A DNA stretch of 64,000 bases from a virus. The notes below the pieces were generated by a model. It ran no database searches and was not told where the DNA came from. It worked only from the letters and a program-made list of their open reading frames with translations. Location of the stretch: UHGV virus genome UHGV-0348865. The stretch is one strand, 5' to 3'. The translations under genes and the position numbers were made by a program. Of this stretch, positions 8,198 to 45,597 are shown piece after piece (position 1 is the stretch's first letter; each line of letters opens with the position of its first letter).

Positions 8198-8264
8198 AAC
8201 GTCTCCTTTTATAAATAAAAATGTCCTACCCCCTATATACATTATAGAAGGCAGGACTTAGGTC

Positions 8265-25713: not shown

Positions 25714-25814
25714 AGGTTGTCCTCCTTGTTATATGTAGACAAAGAATATACATTACACACTGGCTTGTATAGGTCTTAAAACGAAAAAACCCCGCCCGAA
25801 GGCAGGGTCTAATT

Positions 25815-34670: not shown

Positions 34671-34819
34671 TAAGTCCTCTCTTAAGCTTATATATAAGAG
34701 TTTAAAATTCTGATTTGACCGAGTGGGGCTAGCCGCTCGCCGCGCGTTTCCTAAAAAGGGGGAGTCCTCATTTAAAAAAGGGTTATTGGCAATGCCTTTA
34801 CCCTCCCTTTCAACGTTCC

Positions 34820-35290
34820 ACCTTTCCCCGTGCCTACTCCCCGTAGTTATTCCCCCGTGTATACTACCCAATACATTACCTACCCGTTTATTTAGTACCC
34901 CTTTAGAGAGTGAGAGAAAGGCTAGCACTGTACAGGCACAATCATAACAGGTCTAATAATACCGTATAGTAACCATTCCGTCCCCCATAGTTTGAATGTA
35001 AATAGTTTCAATAGTTGTTATTATGAGTGCAATAATGATATATGTATTAATTAAGTGGATGATTGTATTTCTTTTAATTGTTTCTTTTATTACTTTCTTT
35101 TTCAGCGTACATGAGCGTAGCGAATGGTCTTTGATGTTTGAGTAATGCTATTAATAGTTAACTAATTATTTAAGTGGTATATTATTACCGCACTATCTTG
35201 CTATGCTTCCCCGTGGTCTGTTCTGCGGTTGTTGTATCCCCGTTTGTCCTGGTCTGTTGGTCTGTTACCCGTGGTGTTACGCTAACGCTA
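34820..35290. repeat. non-coding region with recurrent CCCCGT(G) and GGTCTGTT motifs and an AT-rich tract
   Basis: CCCCGT occurs at least 6 times in about 34825-35280; GGTCTGTT three times near 35215-35265; 34960-35110 is strongly AT-rich. No credible ORF. Confidence 0.35.
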
Positions 35291-35403: not shown

Positions 35404-35431
35404 TTGACAGTCTTTTCCTTTATTATATAGT
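35404..35431 (+). promoter_or_regulatory. sigma70-like early promoter (TTGACA-16-TATAGT)
   Basis: Perfect -35 hexamer and near-consensus -10 about 40 nt upstream of the 35470 gene; a second TTGACA lies directly downstream. Confidence 0.5.
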
Positions 35432-35469: not shown

Positions 35470-35958
35470 ATGGCTAAAGCAATGCAGGTAGTTAATCTGG
35501 CAAGTTATGCACTGATTGCCGCGATCGGTGTTAGTGCACTGGTCACATCTCTTTCTGATAAGGCTATCGCTAGTCCTGCTCCTGCAACTGATGCGGCTAG
35601 TGTCTTCTCTAGTTCCATCAATAAGGGTTGGATGATTTGCAACGGTGCGGATAGTGACACCAATCAAATCGTCTTAAAGGTTAAATTCAGTAACGTTTCC
35701 CGTGATGGTCTGGTCGTTAGTACCAAAACACTAGATAATCAGGGCAATGAAGATTTGCTATTGAAGCGTACTGATAACGATCCCGAACTAGTTACCTTCG
35801 GCACTGTACAACGTTACAGTCATGCGAAAGCTGTCACGAATCTGGTCAGTTATGGCCCGATGAACGAATCAATGCTTGCTACCACGGTTTACAATAACGA
35901 AGATAATGCGGTTTATACCGTACACATCAATTTGGCTAACTGTATCGGTGCTAAATAA
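35470..35958 (+). CDS. secreted/periplasmic early protein with N-terminal signal peptide
   Basis: AAGGAATAA RBS; hydrophobic N-terminus VVNLASYALIAAIGVSALVTSLS followed by a Ser/Thr/Asn-rich mature region. Confidence 0.55.
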   Translation: MAKAMQVVNLASYALIAAIGVSALVTSLSDKAIASPAPATDAASVFSSSINKGWMICNGADSDTNQIVLKVKFSNVSRDGLVVSTKTLDNQGNEDLLLKRTDNDPELVTFGTVQRYSHAKAVTNLVSYGPMNESMLATTVYNNEDNAVYTVHINLANCIGAK

Positions 35959-35982
35959 TATTAAATCTAACAGGAAATATTT

Positions 35983-36240
35983 ATGGGAAATGAAACTATC
36001 GCACTGATTGATACACATAATTACGGTGGCGTTACGCTCTCCTTTGATGAATCAACCGACGCTGGTTATTTATCTTTTCTTGCTAAAGGTGAGATACAAA
36101 ATATCCGCTTTCCCGTTGTTTGTCTGGTGCAGGATTATATAACAGTTGGGAAGTATTTGGCGCAACGTGGGATTCTCCTATCGCTGGAAGAAGTGGAACA
36201 AATCAGTGTATCCTTTTTTGGCGAGGATAGCAACCAATGA
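35983..36240 (+). CDS. hypothetical early protein
   Basis: 85-aa ORF with RBS. Confidence 0.45.
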   Translation: MGNETIALIDTHNYGGVTLSFDESTDAGYLSFLAKGEIQNIRFPVVCLVQDYITVGKYLAQRGILLSLEEVEQISVSFFGEDSNQ

Positions 36241-36437
36241 TTCATGATTATTTTTGGCGTTGCTTGTTTGGTGCGACCTTCCTGCTGTTCATTACTGATA
36301 TGCTGTATTCTTACGTTTTCTAAGGTCTGGATGTGCTGTTTTTGTTTTTGTTAGTCGTGGGCTTCATTTCTTTAAATTATTTACTGATTGTTGCCGCTCT
36401 CGATGTTATTAATCTCATTATTAAAGGTTGATTGGCT

Positions 36438-36803
36438 ATGTGGTTTATTAAATTCGTCGTTAAAACGGTTGTAGGCTTCTTTCTGGTTGTTCTCCTGTTA
36501 GGTGTCCTGCTATCGGCTATGGGTAGTGTAAAGGCTGCAACGTTCTCCCCTGCTACGGTTGACGGTTTACAGTGCACCTATTTGATTGAGAATTATGACA
36601 CTGGTAAACAGTCACCTAAAGTTATTATTTTGCATGTAAATGATTTCGATCATGTGCAATCATTTGATAAAACTATTCAACTGATGAATGAGTCCACTGG
36701 CAAACAAGTCATGATTGATCATCTGATGCGCTCATCCCTAACCTTGTTTGATGAGTCTATGAATGAAGTTGCATCCGGTAACGGTCAATGTGTAAATCCA
36801 TAG
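36438..36803 (+). CDS. membrane-anchored early protein
   Basis: N-terminal transmembrane helix FIKFVVKTVVGFFLVVLLLGVLLSAMG; start at the ATG after AAAGG (track start is TTG at 36432). Confidence 0.5.
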   Translation: MWFIKFVVKTVVGFFLVVLLLGVLLSAMGSVKAATFSPATVDGLQCTYLIENYDTGKQSPKVIILHVNDFDHVQSFDKTIQLMNESTGKQVMIDHLMRSSLTLFDESMNEVASGNGQCVNP

Positions 36804-36879
36804 GCTTAATCTTTCTCCTGTATTGTGCCGTGGTCATGCCTATGGTCATAATCTATCTGATGCTCTAAATCCTTCCTGT

Positions 36880-36908
36880 AAGCCTCCTAGTGAGGCTTTT
36901 CTCTTTTC
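36880..36908 (+). terminator. rho-independent terminator
   Basis: AAGCCTC-CTAGT-GAGGCTT followed by TTCTCTTTTC, about 75 nt after the stop of the 36438-36803 gene. Confidence 0.6.
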
Positions 36909-37189
36909 TAAGGTGATTGTATGCCTTACTCCCTTTTAGTTCGCTGTAGTGCGTTTTAGACCGCTCATTATTTCTTTACAAGCCGTTTTCTATGATGTAC
37001 CGCGTGCGTGCGCTCTTTTACCTTCCTATAGTGAAAAAGTTTAAAATATTTTGCTTTACCCTATTGTATCCCTCACTGGTTAATGTATACTTCATTTCAT
37101 CGGGTACGATGTAAAACATACAAGGCAAGGAAACTTGCCCCGCTCTTTAAAAATCAGGCAAGAAAGTGAAAATATTCTTAAAAAGAGTA

Positions 37190-37218
37190 TTGACACCAGA
37201 AAAAGCCTGATATATAGT
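37190..37218 (+). promoter_or_regulatory. strong sigma70-like promoter (TTGACA-17-TATAGT), first of three in tandem
   Basis: Consensus -35, 17-bp spacer, TATAGT -10, preceded by an A-rich UP-like tract. Confidence 0.55.
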
Positions 37219-37334
37219 GAGCATAAGTCAGCGATGACGTGAAATATCCCGCTCTTTAAAAACTTATCATCTTGCCCTTTCGCATAGATTCAAGCGAGAT
37301 AAGGGAACGGAATAAAAGAAGATGATAAAAAGAG

Positions 37335-37362
37335 TTGACAAGCTAACACGGTGTGTTAAGCT
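37335..37362 (+). promoter_or_regulatory. sigma70-like promoter (TTGACA-16-TAAGCT), second of three
   Basis: Consensus -35 with a weaker -10; same AAAAAGAG upstream context as the first promoter. Confidence 0.4.
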
Positions 37363-37492
37363 ACAAATGCAGTAACCGCTCTTTAAAAATATGAATCATA
37401 AGTTAAGCCTCACCGCTTAATCTTCAATCAAATATAGCTGATTGATATATCCTCCCAATAAGGGGAGCGACGAAAAAAGATTAAAAAAGTGG

Positions 37493-37521
37493 TTGACAGC
37501 TAAAACAGCATGATTCATAAT
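37493..37521 (+). promoter_or_regulatory. strong sigma70-like promoter (TTGACA-17-CATAAT), third of three
   Basis: Consensus -35, 17-bp spacer, CATAAT -10, A-rich upstream tract. Confidence 0.55.
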
Positions 37522-38445
37522 GAGCACTCACTAAGCAAATCATCGCTTCAGTGAAAAGCGTAACAACGGCTAACAGTTGCATAGTGTGAGAAAGCACACT
37601 GATAGATTTACCGCTCTTTAATAATTTAAACATTCTCCTATATCGGTTGAATATGTTAGATGATAATAACCATCGGATAACATACCAGATAAAACGGCGT
37701 AAAACTCCCTAAATTATCAGGGTAAACAGGTTTACATTCCCTTACTGGAAACGTCACCACTGATAAACGGATTCATTGAGTGCACGCAAAGACTTAAGCT
37801 AATCGCCCACGGTTAAGGGTAGCGGCGGCTATCGCTAACAAGGCGCTACAGTGAAAGAAGTTAATCAGGGTAGGCAAGTCCGAAGAATTAACGCCCAATT
37901 GAGGGCGGCGGGGAGTGGTTAAAAAGTGGCAAATTGCTATTTAACAATAAGGTTTAGTGTGAACGTTTACGATGTGAACGGCTTGAGATTCATCACAAGA
38001 TGAAAGTACATAGTCGGTTTATGTAGTAAACTTGCCGAAAGATATAAAACGTCAGAACATTAGACGGTCAATGACTCTTTCACAATAGCATCCCGTTGTG
38101 GGCGATGGCTAGTGATTGAGAGTTGATACAAAAGGATAGGCGAGAGCGAAAGCAAAGTAGACGATATTGCCGACGGTTACAATAAACGTAACTAATTAGA
38201 GTCGGACGCACTGCCTTATTGTGATGATTGATCATCGCTATCAGGTCGGCTTGGTTTATAGCGACTAATTAAAGATACCAGATGAAACATCACAGATAAG
38301 GGGGCGGCAAGGTTAACTCCTGATAAGACCGCCCCGCTTATCAATAATTACTTAACAATGAGTGATTATCGATAAGTCAATAGTGACTTAAAAAGCTCAT
38401 AGCGAGCGGGGGCAATAGTGCCCTTACAATTGAAAGGTGAATATC

Positions 38446-39345
38446 ATGGCTAAAGTTTTTAATCTGGTAAAAGAATCTGGTTTTAACGCACTGGCTAACA
38501 ACATTCGTAGCAATAACGCGGCGATTAAACAAGATGTTTCTAATTTTCTGTTAGGGCACTTGCAGCACTTCCGCAGTAACGGTAAAAAGCTGGACGTATT
38601 GCAGGCGGCGGTTGACTTTCTGTTAACTGAACGTTTTCGTGATATGGATGTGATCGCCACTGCAATTACTTTCTTAACTCCCATCAAGTTTAACACCGAT
38701 GCGGCAAACGGTCGTAAAAAGTGGATTAATCTGGAAGGTGAGGCGAAAGCGAAAGAAGATGCGAAAGAAGCGCAAATTAAGGCCAAAATGGAACAAAACC
38801 GCGCTCGCTGGTCAAATGCTTTCGAAAACTTTGCTTTAGGCCGTGAAATTGAAGTCGATAACCCTAACTTTTACAAGGGTTGTAATGACAACGTGGCGGC
38901 ACACCTGCAAATTCCGGCGAAAAACAAGGAAGATTTTAATCAGGATATTTACGCTTTAGTTGAACGCTTGAATGCAATCCGTATTGAAGCCAAATTACTG
39001 GCTGATGAGCGCAACGGCGCAACTAGCGATAACACTATCGCCCTGAGTGAAGAAGTTGGGAAGGTTAAAAAGTCCTTTGATTCACTCATCAAGAAAGTCA
39101 CGGCCTCAACGGTAGCGATCTCGGATGATTATCTGATGAACGCATCAAGCAAGGAATTAGAATCACTCGATTCATACGCTGATGAAATGGAAAAGACTGT
39201 TGCAGCTATGCAGGAGAAGTTAGAAAGTCTGCGCGGTCGTATCTCTTCAACGGTTGCTACCCGTACCGAACAAGCTGCGAAGGCAGAAGAAGAAGAAGTA
39301 TTGCGTAAAGCGGCTGAGATTATGGCGGCACGTCAGGCGGCATAA
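38446..39345 (+). CDS. first early protein downstream of the long leader (about 300 aa, helical, function unknown)
   Basis: ATG preceded by GAAAGG; Ala/Lys/Glu-rich helical C-terminal half; followed by a strong terminator. Confidence 0.55.
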   Translation: MAKVFNLVKESGFNALANNIRSNNAAIKQDVSNFLLGHLQHFRSNGKKLDVLQAAVDFLLTERFRDMDVIATAITFLTPIKFNTDAANGRKKWINLEGEAKAKEDAKEAQIKAKMEQNRARWSNAFENFALGREIEVDNPNFYKGCNDNVAAHLQIPAKNKEDFNQDIYALVERLNAIRIEAKLLADERNGATSDNTIALSEEVGKVKKSFDSLIKKVTASTVAISDDYLMNASSKELESLDSYADEMEKTVAAMQEKLESLRGRISSTVATRTEQAAKAEEEEVLRKAAEIMAARQAA

Positions 39346-39367: not shown

Positions 39368-39405
39368 AAGGCGCTATCTTAACGGGTAGCGCCTTTTCTT
39401 TTATC
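39368..39405 (+). terminator. rho-independent terminator
   Basis: AAGGCGCTA-loop-TAGCGCCTT followed by TTCTTTTAT. Confidence 0.65.
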
Positions 39406-40171: not shown

Positions 40172-40615
40172 GTGGCTAAATCTAAAATCAGCATGAAGGG
40201 CGGGCGTTGTTTTGCTATCTCTGAACTGGAGAAAGAGAAGCCAAAGGCAACTAATCACGTTAGCAAGCGTAGTCTAAAACGTCGTGCTGCAAAAGCTGAG
40301 GCTGAATCCCATGTTCCTTCCAGTGTGGCAAAACGTATAGGCCATCGTGTCCATCGGGCTGATGCGTTGTTGTTAGCTGATCATAAACGCTCTTTGTTAA
40401 AGAGCGGGGGAGCTAAAACAGAAGAGGAGAAGAAGTTAGAAATCTTCTGTAATGGTCGCACCCGTGGTAAACAGAAGTTTAAAGGTAGTACGAAAGACCC
40501 GCAGGCTTTCCCTAAGACAAGTCAGTGTGCGCCTGATGTATTCTACGCAGATAGTAAACACAAGTGGGGTGTTGAGAAATACATTGACCCCATTAAAGAG
40601 GCGAGGGTAAAATGA
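40172..40615 (+). CDS. basic (Lys/Arg-rich) early protein
   Basis: GTG start preceded by AAGGAA; contains the internal palindrome CGCTCTTTGTTAAAGAGCG. Confidence 0.45.
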   Translation: MAKSKISMKGGRCFAISELEKEKPKATNHVSKRSLKRRAAKAEAESHVPSSVAKRIGHRVHRADALLLADHKRSLLKSGGAKTEEEKKLEIFCNGRTRGKQKFKGSTKDPQAFPKTSQCAPDVFYADSKHKWGVEKYIDPIKEARVK

Positions 40616-40850: not shown

Positions 40851-40876
40851 AGCCGCCTTTGAGCGGCTTTTTGCGT
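40851..40876 (+). terminator. rho-independent terminator
   Basis: AGCCGCC-TTTGA-GCGGCT followed by TTTTGCG. Confidence 0.5.
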
Positions 40877-40935: not shown

Positions 40936-40963
40936 GCCCCGGCTACGGCTGGGGCTTTTTTAT
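40936..40963 (+). terminator. rho-independent terminator
   Basis: GCCCCGGC-TACG-GCTGGGGC followed by TTTTTTAT. Confidence 0.65.
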
Positions 40964-43911: not shown

Positions 43912-43916
43912 AGAAA

Positions 43917-43946
43917 GGCTGCCTTCGGGCGGCCTTTGTTGTTTTA
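43917..43946 (+). terminator. rho-independent terminator
   Basis: AGGCTGCC-TTCG-GGCGGCCT followed by TTGTTGTTTT. Confidence 0.65.
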
Positions 43947-45518: not shown

Positions 45519-45597
45519 GGGGGTGTACCTCACCCGTCTTCTAAACGGGCGTTAATCGAGTAATTGGAGTATGCAGGTTCGAGTCCTGTCTCCCCCT
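45519..45597 (+). ncRNA. tRNA-like element (non-canonical; anticodon-like hairpin with UCU plus T-arm)
   Basis: Hairpin CCCGT-CTTCTAA-ACGGG (7-nt loop, U33/A37-like positions, UCU centre); T-arm GCAGG-TTCGAGT-CCTGT; GGGGG...CCCCC closing helix. Spacing does not fit a standard cloverleaf. Confidence 0.3.

Follow-up and report, generated by a model that had tools for sequence, protein, structure and literature searches.

Predicted boxA elements and a conserved structured leader RNA in the early promoter spacer of phiEco32-like phages

What occupies the unusually long spacer that precedes an early gene of a virulent phiEco32-like phage (Gordonclarkvirinae)? The DNA analyzed here is a 64,000-nucleotide stretch of UHGV virus genome UHGV-0348865 (the window), in which positions 36804-38445 contain no open reading frame of 60 aa or more. 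This was pointed out in a prior sequence-only reading and is borne out; the longest frames in 36804-38436 have 51 and 50 codons, and both are on the minus strand. That reading took the gene at 38446 for the first early gene, which is incorrect: an early operon already lies upstream, with a promoter at 35404, genes at 35470-36803 and a terminator at 36880-36898. The terminator hairpin and its T run are kept in relatives despite a changed stem sequence (e.g. SU7 and PAS59), and a terminator is annotated at this position in the SU10 and SU7 records. The spacer is already known for its tandem sigma70 early promoters; the boxA sites and the structured leader RNA described below appear to be new, and a literature search, Savalia 2008 and Pavlova 2012 apart, found no paper connecting boxA to phiEco32 or Kuravirus to a non-coding RNA. 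Coordinates of all features are collected in Table 1.

Table 1. Sequence features of the early promoter spacer and its downstream gene, in window coordinates.
Feature	Coordinates	Strand	Remarks
Intrinsic terminator	36880-36908	+	Ends early operon 35470-36803; 7-bp G+C-rich stem, then T run
P0, TTGTAT-16-TATACT	37064-37091	+	Weaker sigma70-type promoter, upstream of boxA1
Hairpin GGCAAG-GAAA-CTTGCC	37124-37139	+	Directly 5' of boxA1; order as for boxB and boxA in rrn leaders
boxA1, CGCTCTTTAAAAA	37141-37153	+	Exact GYTCTTTAANA match
P1, TTGACA-17-TATAGT	37190-37218	+	11/12 match to consensus; A-rich tract upstream
Hairpin GTCA-GCGA-TGAC	37227-37238	+	11 nt 5' of boxA2
boxA2, CGCTCTTTAAAAA	37250-37262	+	Exact GYTCTTTAANA match; position conserved in relatives
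Long conserved hairpin, TTATCATCTT...AAGATGATAA	37264-37327	+	Between boxA2 and P2
P2, TTGACA-16-(TGt)TAAGCT	37335-37362	+	Extended -10 promoter, TGtTAAGCT
boxA3, CGCTCTTTAAAAA	37377-37389	+	About +8 from predicted P2 start; fixed position in 31/31 loci
P3, TTGACA-17-CATAAT	37493-37521	+	11/12 match to consensus
Hairpin AGTGTG-AGAAAG-CACACT	37583-37600	+	11 nt 5' of boxA4
boxA4, CGCTCTTTAATAA	37612-37624	+	Exact GYTCTTTAANA match; unpaired in predicted structure
Leader domain I	37625-37923	+	Long-range closing helix 37625-37638/37910-37923; helices 2-13, many compensatory changes
Candidate inter-domain pseudoknot, 9 bp, 5' arm ATCGCCCAC	37802-37810	+	Pairs with GTGGGCGAT, 38098-38106
Leader domain II	37924-38222	+	Hairpin 37924-37942 plus domain closed by 37944-37961/38207-38222; helices 14-26
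Leader domain III	38223-38424	+	Row of hairpins, helices 27-36; includes 38301-38335 (GGGGCGG...CCGCCCC)
Shine-Dalgarno AAGGTG, ATG 38446 and gp124-homologue CDS	38434-39345	+	299 aa; phrog_13018
Strong terminator-like hairpin	39368-39405	+	Directly after gp124 homologue; 12-bp stem, then T run

The three perfect TTGACA boxes noted at 37190, 37335 and 37493 are present, spaced by 145 and 158 bp, and their interpretation as a promoter array is upheld by published work on phiEco32 and SU10, in which three sigma70 early promoters are reported in the equivalent spacer (PMC4281155). The hexamers are near consensus, separated by 16-17 bp, preceded by A-rich tracts and conserved in relatives; in an eight-genome alignment the TTGACA sequences of P1 and P2 are invariant, and the TTGACA and -10 hexamers of P3 are largely so. 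Two upstream elements, P0 and boxA1, had been missed. P0 is overlapped at 37081-37089 by TAATGTATA, which is the consensus for the phage sigma factor gp36 and has only three exact copies in the window. The P0 -10 segment GTATACT is kept in Bas89, Bas92 and Bas90, and a TTGACA promoter stands at the equivalent place in phiEco32 and SU10.

The box CGCTCTTTAA[A/T]AA does follow each of the three TTGACA promoters, as first claimed, and CGCTCTTTAA occurs five times in the window (0.15 expected), four of these being on the plus strand at 37141, 37250, 37377 and 37612. All four match GYTCTTTAANA, the published gamma-proteobacterial boxA consensus (PMC5725501), which has six matches in the window against 0.48 expected, with the four plus-strand matches (beginning at 37142, 37251, 37378 and 37613) clustered within 480 bp. 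Each follows a promoter match, as judged from predicted starts, and lies ahead of the ORF-free leader. The strand bias and conservation are seen directly in the genomes: 31 of 31 distinct related loci have 3-5 boxA matches in the spacer, all of them on the plus strand, variation in boxA4 among these sequences is confined to the consensus 'N' position, and boxA is still found downstream of promoters of quite different sequence in SU7, PAS59, NC-B and TH42. Many relatives contain CGCTCTTTAACAA, which differs from the rrn boxA only in its first base, and boxA4 there has AACAA, as in the rrn boxA core. In the consensus structure boxA4 is unpaired and ranks at the 95th percentile for unpaired probability; boxA1-3 are partly paired with downstream AAAGAG tracts in equilibrium folds. 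By analogy with characterized boxA sites, the boxes are best read as putative NusB/S10-loading sites that would shield the long untranslated transcript from Rho. A further boxA-like sequence, GCTATTTAACAA at 37936, fails at consensus position 4, is base-paired in the fold, and was set aside as a structural element.

Small hairpins accompany these elements, with one preceding each of three of the four boxA copies, and a hairpin before boxA is also the order in rRNA leaders. At 37124 the relatives have a hairpin in the same place with a different sequence. The 37227 hairpin reads TTCA-GCGA-TGAA in phiEco32, a compensatory change, and in PAS59 three pairs of that at 37583 have changed in a compensatory way (GAGGTG...CACCTC). 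The longer hairpin at 37264-37327 has mutually compensating A-to-G and T-to-C changes in Bas92, SU7 and PAS59.

Between boxA4 and the gp124 homologue there is a leader of ~830 nt, with a length of 845-855 nt in the 31 sequences compared. The description of ~800 nt before the gene as hairpin-rich is substantiated; the plus strand of 37606-38445 has a minimum free energy of -260 kcal/mol (z = -12.1), against z-scores of -7.4 for the minus strand and -1.2 for neighbouring coding sequence. The consensus structure has ~225 predicted base pairs with 99.2% of alignment cells paired. A comparison across related phages, proposed as a check in the sequence-only reading, finds compensatory changes at 70-75 pairs: there are 70 double-change pairs (75 in a refined structure) versus 34.5-36.6 in shuffles (34.5 +/- 3) and 5-11 in slid controls, with many of the changes inherited rather than independent because the homologues are all at least 75% identical and belong to a single subfamily. 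The fold is also strand-specific, since the plus strand has 781 G-U cells and 99.2% pairing and the same helices on the minus strand are 88.3% paired. Compensation beyond controls and strand specificity are both features of conserved structured RNAs in general, and the alignments strongly back the prediction that the leader is a conserved multi-domain structured RNA with a plus-strand-specific fold. The suggestion of a long structured 5' leader is therefore strongly supported by covariation. The proposal of discrete small RNAs is not, as the leader contains no terminator and has no Rfam match.

The leader is at least as conserved as the genes on either side (identity in SU7 is 90%, compared with 76% for the gp124 homologue) and contains invariant unpaired blocks. 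Helices 19, 20, 22 and 24 of domain II are rich in covariation, and when a covariance model of one sub-domain (38031-38144) was run on the window it scored 137.6 bits, with no other copy found. A hairpin offered as an example near 38295-38345 is real, at 38301-38335, and compensatory changes are present in five of its seven pairs. The inter-domain pseudoknot is paired in all 31 sequences (100%) with two compensatory pairs, and it is only a candidate because two invariant local hairpins compete with it. Searches with Rfam models at gathering thresholds gave no match in the region, including to GOLLD, ROOL, OLE, riboswitches, group I and II introns, 6S and tmRNA; relaxing E to 10 yielded noise only (no more than 21 bits versus gathering scores of 34-167), and a search of the region for tRNA and tmRNA genes found nothing.

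The distribution of the leader is narrow and restricted to one phage subfamily. Within the phage collection it is confined to 98 records, the ones in which the gp124 homologue is found, and searches of 5,426 E. coli genomes and 72,556 plasmids gave no match. Distant relatives were also sought among viral contigs by a protein-guided scan, which returned only five near-identical genomes, and two degenerate-motif scans returned only chance matches with no further similarity. Additional useful relatives came from a metagenome 20-mer scan; this also returned three AT-rich contigs with an exact shared 23-mer, which are unrelated and were judged to be chance matches. A promoter array and long leader of similar layout are found in the related phage 7-11, where boxA is absent and homology is detectable neither in the leader RNA nor in the downstream protein. 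Since 7-11 has this layout without it, boxA is not obligatory for such an arrangement.

Several characterized systems share parts of this organization. An rrn operon leader has a boxB hairpin, boxA (TGCTCTTTAACAA) and a NusB/S10/NusA/NusG/SuhB complex, and the phage region resembles it in the succession of strong sigma70 promoters with A-rich tracts, hairpin, boxA, and then a long untranslated structured RNA with long-range helices. It differs in belonging to a virulent phage, in having four successive boxA sites, one to a promoter, and in a non-rRNA product followed by a protein gene; moreover, the counterpart of the leader-trailer closing helix, predicted between the 5' flank of boxA4 and the Shine-Dalgarno region, lacks covariation, is broken in two sequences and was rejected. 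A lambdoid nut site comprises boxA (CGCTCTTA), a downstream boxB hairpin and the N protein. It too places boxA near early promoters in a phage early transcript, and the CGCTCTT core here is identical to that of lambda boxA. However, the GNRA-type hairpins at boxA1, A2 and A4 are 5' of boxA rather than 3' as in the lambda-type arrangement, and there is no N homologue among the annotations, the nearby proteins being of unassigned function. Unlike the lambdoid sites, the boxA sequences here match the full consensus (TTTAA), and full-consensus boxA binds NusB-S10 without N. In phage T7, the three strong E. coli promoters A1-A3 stand in tandem before the first early gene, with a leader of a few hundred nt that includes an RNase III site; the present region similarly opens an early transcription unit with three to four strong host-type promoters ~130-160 bp apart, but with a leader of 0.85-1.25 kb, boxA elements and a multi-domain fold. 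The boxA sites of CRISPR arrays and the suhB 5' UTR, which block Rho (Stringer 2020, PMC7665894; Baniulyte 2017, PMC5725501), have the same consensus and likewise precede an unusually long untranslated RNA, although in the phage there are multiple sites and one large folded RNA rather than a repeat array. Finally, GOLLD, ROOL and OLE are large ornate phage or bacterial RNAs, with GOLLD exceeding 800 nt (PMC12286853). The leader is comparable to these in size class, in being phage-encoded, and in having an elaborate structure, backed by covariation, that includes a candidate pseudoknot, but it has no Rfam match, is not beside tRNA islands, has a narrow distribution, and is a 5' leader under early sigma70 promoters of a virulent coliphage.

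We favor an explanation that combines boxA-mediated antitermination with the structured leader, and put its probability as a whole at roughly 60%. The spacer would be the main early transcription start region of phiEco32-like phages, with tandem firing of four host sigma70 promoters (P0, which is weak, P1, P2 and P3), and the nascent RNA would present boxA, CGCUCUUUAA[A/U/C]AA, roughly 10-90 nt past each predicted start. Taking rrn operons, CRISPR arrays and suhB as models, we infer that the boxA RNA (CGCUCUUUAAAAA) would bind NusB-S10, that NusA, NusG and SuhB would then join RNA polymerase, and that the loaded polymerase would resist Rho. The polymerase would need such protection since there is no translation over the following 0.83 kb, or over as much as 1.25 kb when the first start is used, and boxA is required for long untranslated RNAs to escape Rho (PMC7665894). 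The leader RNA, with three domains, two of them closed by helices spanning ~300 nt, and the candidate pseudoknot, would be co-transcribed with the gp124-homologue gene, and may act either in cis, by affecting how stable the gp124-homologue mRNA is or how well it is translated, or in trans. Complexes of the rrn type are said to counter Rho above all, with only a weak effect on intrinsic terminators, and the boxA model thus leaves read-through of the hairpin at 39368, for which the equivalent site in SU7 is annotated as a terminator, unexplained. As a more tentative extension, with the odds against it, the locus could be a phage 'pseudo-rRNA operon', in which rrn-like promoters and boxA load Nus factors and SuhB so as to make and fold an ornate ~830-nt RNA acting early in its own right; sequestration of a host factor or of a defence sensor, or a GOLLD/ROOL-like higher-order assembly, would be examples.

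A simpler account of the leader, which we regard as rather unlikely, is that it is a passive insulator whose hairpins stabilize the 5' end of the early mRNA against RNases, or which merely lacks Rho-loading sites, with no function of its own. The leader and the gp124 homologue are predicted to share a transcript, no terminator having been found between them, and stabilizing 5' hairpins of phage mRNAs are known, as in T4 gene 32 (cited in PMC8948821); however, the near-fixed length, the long-range domain-closing helices, the invariant unpaired blocks and the above-neighbour conservation far exceed what stabilization would need. An unlikelier possibility is a replication origin, in which transcripts from the array form a structured pre-primer or R-loop. 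The large non-coding region, strong promoters and structured transcript are reminiscent of ColE1 RNA II, the T7 primary origin and T4 oriF, which serve as the comparison for transcription-primed initiation, but GC skew changes sign at ~35,000, a point of divergent transcription near the genome ends, rather than at 37-38 kb, there are no iterons or AT-rich unwinding element after the leader RNA, and boxA has no known role in priming.

Still less credit is given to a decoy role for boxA, whereby abundant early transcripts with up to four copies titrate NusB, S10 and SuhB from the host rrn operons and so aid host shut-off. Multiple consensus boxA sites per transcript and very strong promoters fit this, and shut-off of the host by phiEco32 is said to have been reported by Pavlova in 2012. 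But shut-off has already been attributed to gp79 (PMC12276001), and one boxA per promoter is the pattern expected for loading of every polymerase in cis. The initial interpretation of the boxes as DNA operators, at which a phage or host regulator would turn off the early promoters, draws on a repeated 13-bp motif adjoining each promoter and is very doubtful: the motif is non-palindromic, always past the predicted start (about +8 to +85), on the transcribed strand alone in 31/31 loci, and an exact match to a consensus defined at the RNA level. The recurrence of the box core as a palindrome at 40388-40406 does not help, as this lies within an ORF (40172-40615), is absent from 35/35 related loci and varies among relatives at synonymous codon positions, and it looks like a chance coincidence in coding sequence. 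That the region instead encodes small proteins below the size cut-off is the least probable of these alternatives, and we consider it negligible. Two deposited annotations (e.g. CHD5UKE1) do call many 30-50 aa ORFs here, but most records annotate nothing, the 31 aligned sequences contain neither a conserved ORF nor 3-nt periodicity (114/136/114 variable columns), and the substitutions are accounted for by base-pair compensation.

Large RNAs of conserved, elaborate fold are seldom encountered, and for most of them neither a function nor a tractable host is known. The leader RNA described here occurs in coliphages that include BASEL isolates plating on O-antigen-restored E. coli K-12, and with defined promoters ahead of it, it can readily be deleted, probed, examined by cryo-EM and used in pull-downs. 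The boxA interpretation predicts host dependencies on nusB, nusE, suhB and rho. If it is true, a virulent phage would be employing antitermination of the host rRNA type without an N protein, and the boxA modules offer a testable answer as to how the phiEco32-like phages, which occur commonly in nature and feature in therapy studies, drive the host RNA polymerase through ~1 kb of untranslated RNA.

The gene-free spacer at 36804-38445 has counterparts in a single group of phages: a phage collection search with positions 36700-38500 gives 98 matching records at 76-95% identity, all of them Escherichia or Shigella podoviruses of the Gordonclarkvirinae and including phiEco32, SU10 and SU7. Early transcription runs along the + strand of the window, opposite to the orientation in which the phiEco32 GenBank records are written, and in phiEco32 the equivalent spacer is 1.94 kb long and lies between genes 125 and 124. 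The sign of the GC skew switches at ~34,800-35,200, the divergence point of the late (- strand) and early (+ strand) genes; by phiEco32 coordinates the physical genome ends, with a 193-bp terminal repeat, should map to ~34.7-34.9 kb, and the window would thus come from a circularly permuted assembly. There is no ORF of at least 60 aa on either strand within 36804-38436, as the sequence-only reading had stated. The 123-aa ORF before the spacer is called 'terminase' in many records via phrog_13168, a name that looks doubtful because the protein is small and is encoded in an early operon immediately upstream of the spacer.

The three sigma70-type promoters proposed from the sequence (P1 to P3) have near-consensus hexamers, and a weaker promoter, P0, precedes them at a position where phiEco32 and SU10 carry a TTGACA promoter. 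The window overall shows no enrichment of promoter-like matches, and the significance of the array lies in its clustering, the invariance of TTGACA in relatives and the literature. Three sigma70 promoters are described in the SU10 spacer, as in phiEco32, along with a small upstream operon that has its own promoter and terminator (PMC4281155). The array itself is thus not new, and the 299-aa gp124 homologue, whose gene starts at 38446, is not encoded by the first early gene, contrary to what had been supposed. The arrangement resembles that of the A1-A3 promoters of T7. The promoter consensus of the gp36 phage sigma factor, TAATGTATA, occurs exactly three times in the window; two copies face late genes and the third overlaps the P0 -10 hexamer, an overlap that might permit additional leader transcription at a later stage of infection in this phage, Bas90 and CHD5UKE1. 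At the P0 place phiEco32, Bas89 and Bas92 lack the motif.

Behind each promoter lies a copy of CGCTCTTTAA, of which the sequence-only reading had recognized the last three and missed the one behind P0. A single - strand copy brings the window total to five, against 0.15 expected. The motif fits the gamma-proteobacterial boxA consensus GYTCTTTAANA (PMC5725501), which has six matches in the window against 0.48 expected. Among 31 distinct related loci every spacer has three to five consensus matches on its transcribed strand, the last two at fixed positions, and the opposite spacer strand has none in 31/31. The promoter spacer sequences of SU7, PAS59, NC-B and TH42 diverge, and the box still comes after them. 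When all sites containing CTCTTT are tabulated position by position, the conserved part is limited to YGCTCTTTAAnAA. In boxA4 the 31 sequences differ solely at the consensus 'N'; many relatives have CGCTCTTTAACAA at this box, identical to the rrn boxA except for its first base. Each of boxA1, boxA2 and boxA4 is preceded, at a distance of 1-11 nt, by a small hairpin with a GNRA-type loop. Compensatory changes occur in these hairpins in phiEco32 and PAS59, and a hairpin before boxA is the order found in rrn leaders, not in lambda nut sites. Judged by sequence, the spacer boxes are boxA elements.

Several other sites resemble these boxes or could pair with them. The perfect palindrome CGCTCTTTGTTAAAGAGCG exists as described previously and reads as consensus boxA on the - strand, but it is absent from all 35 related loci; it lies inside an ORF (40172-40615), and the site varies in those loci at synonymous positions. 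The boxA-like CGCTCTTTTACC has one extra T and fails the consensus; relatives keep it, placed after the upstream terminator and before P0. AAAGAG tracts immediately 5' of the -35 hexamers of P1 and P2 are complementary to the boxA core CUCUUU, and equilibrium folds partly pair boxA1-3 with such tracts; this pairing could be incidental, the tract being an A-rich UP-like element, or could mask upstream boxA in read-through transcripts.

Coordinates of features in and around the spacer
Feature	Position	Strand	Detail
ORF named 'terminase'	36432-36803	+	123 aa
CGCTCTTTTACC	37011-37022	+	boxA-like
P0	37064-37091	+	TTGTAT-16-TATACT
P1	37190	+	TTGACA-17-TATAGT
P2	37335	+	TTGACA-16-TAAGCT, with TG extension
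P3	37493	+	TTGACA-17-CATAAT
TAATGTATA	37081-37089	+	overlaps P0
TAATGTATA	8236-8244; 25747-25755	-	
boxA1, A2, A3, A4	37141; 37250; 37377; 37612	+	CGCTCTTTAA
AAAGAG tracts	37180-37187; 37326-37333	+	
Domain I	37625-37923	+	closing helix spans ~300 nt
Domain II	37944-38222	+	closed by long-range helix
Domain III	38223-38424	+	hairpins in a row
Terminator-like hairpins	39368-39395; 40851-40868; 40936-40955; 43914-43937	+	
Palindrome	40388-40406		CGCTCTTTGTTAAAGAGCG
tRNA match	45519-45597	+	Rfam

Between boxA4 and the gp124-homologue ATG (37606-38457), 31 distinct sequences have a leader of 845-855 nt, with a mean column identity of 90%. RNAalifold predicts 225 pairs, with 99.2% of the alignment cells paired, and 70 pairs are changed on both sides, compared to 34.5 ± 3.0 in shuffles (0/500 reach this number) and 5-11 in a control with partners slid by 1-3 columns. 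The fold can be assigned to the + strand from its 781 G-U cells, the same helices being merely 88% paired on the - strand. Its folding energy is -260 kcal/mol on the + strand (z = -12.1) against -229 kcal/mol on the - strand (z = -7.4), and neighbouring coding sequence has z = -1.2. These data strongly support a large structured RNA, in agreement with the long 5' leader suggested earlier; of discrete small RNAs, also suggested, we found no indication. The leader fold divides into three parts, domains I to III of the table. A scan of leader column pairs for extra covariation added three elements. One is a helix around the 38245-38265 hairpin, for which a compensating insertion speaks. Another, a 9-bp pairing of 37802-37810 with 38098-38106, is a candidate inter-domain pseudoknot, paired in 31/31 with two compensatory pairs, and 38219-38226 with 38288-38295 is a possible alternative pairing. 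We place no weight on a helix predicted to join the Shine-Dalgarno region to the sequence flanking boxA4 on its 5' side, which has no covariation support.

Conservation of the leader equals or exceeds that of the flanking genes, and the leader is present in exactly those phage records with a gp124 homologue. It has no matches in Rfam, no relative in E. coli genomes and plasmids, and no second copy in a scan of the window. Its invariant 23-mer AAATTGCTATTTAACAATAAGGT (37931-37953) also has exact copies in three AT-rich metagenome contigs (L029-L031), which are related to one another but otherwise have nothing in common with the phage; given how large that collection is, chance is the probable cause. 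Salmonella phage 7-11, of a different family (compared loci L043 1-320 and L018 4865-5917, both - strand), likewise has three sigma70 promoters followed by >1.1 kb of non-coding DNA before its first early gene, but it lacks boxA and detectable homology, and its leader has z = -3.7.

From the observed motifs, with their conservation, and from the fold of the RNA we infer a most probable scheme, covering factor binding, sensitivity to Rho, the transcript ends and what the RNA does, in which host RNA polymerase would initiate at P0-P3, each transcript would soon expose a boxA, and NusB-S10 and the remaining Nus/SuhB complex would be loaded there. The modified polymerase would then withstand Rho over 0.85-1.25 kb of untranslated RNA and reach the gp124 homologue. 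The complex may also assist long-range helix formation, a role proposed for it in rRNA. A requirement for boxA to block Rho has been documented for RNAs that are long and untranslated (PMC7665894). Just after the gp124 homologue comes a strong terminator-like hairpin, with others downstream, and the + strand shows no strong sigma70 promoter at 41-61 kb, so that read-through from the array may matter for the whole early region; rrn-type complexes, however, are not known to overcome intrinsic terminators well. The tRNA match in this region (33.2 bits, gathering score 29), for which ARAGORN makes no call, may represent a phage tRNA of divergent sequence.

None of the five alternatives considered accounts equally well for boxA copies confined to one strand and for a fold so large and so constrained. 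A leader that is passive and simply stabilising is the least improbable of these, though unlikely. It is doubtful that the spacer is a transcription-primed replication origin, since the GC skew switches at ~35 kb, at the early/late divergence near the genome ends and away from the leader; a boxA array acting as a Nus-factor decoy seems slightly less probable again. The earlier idea that the boxes are DNA operators is very unlikely given their strict strand bias, lack of dyad symmetry and variable distance downstream of the predicted starts. Small genes overlooked in the spacer are scarcely credible, with neither a conserved ORF nor codon periodicity in the 31 leader sequences.

In the literature searched, which comprised work other than the two primary papers on phiEco32, no link between boxA and this phage was found; a 2022 publication by the phiEco32-transcription laboratory makes no reference to Nus, Rho or boxA, and calls antitermination in phage 7-11 'to be defined'. 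By analogy, the boxA modules may act like those of rrn leaders, CRISPR-array leaders and suhB, but here they belong to a virulent phage, are multiplied per promoter and apparently operate without an N/boxB system. The running text of a large viral structured-RNA screen does not name these phages. The leader RNA is the same type of molecule as GOLLD, ROOL and OLE (PMC12286853) but falls outside every Rfam family, and its interest is that of a large, strongly supported RNA in a tractable E. coli system.
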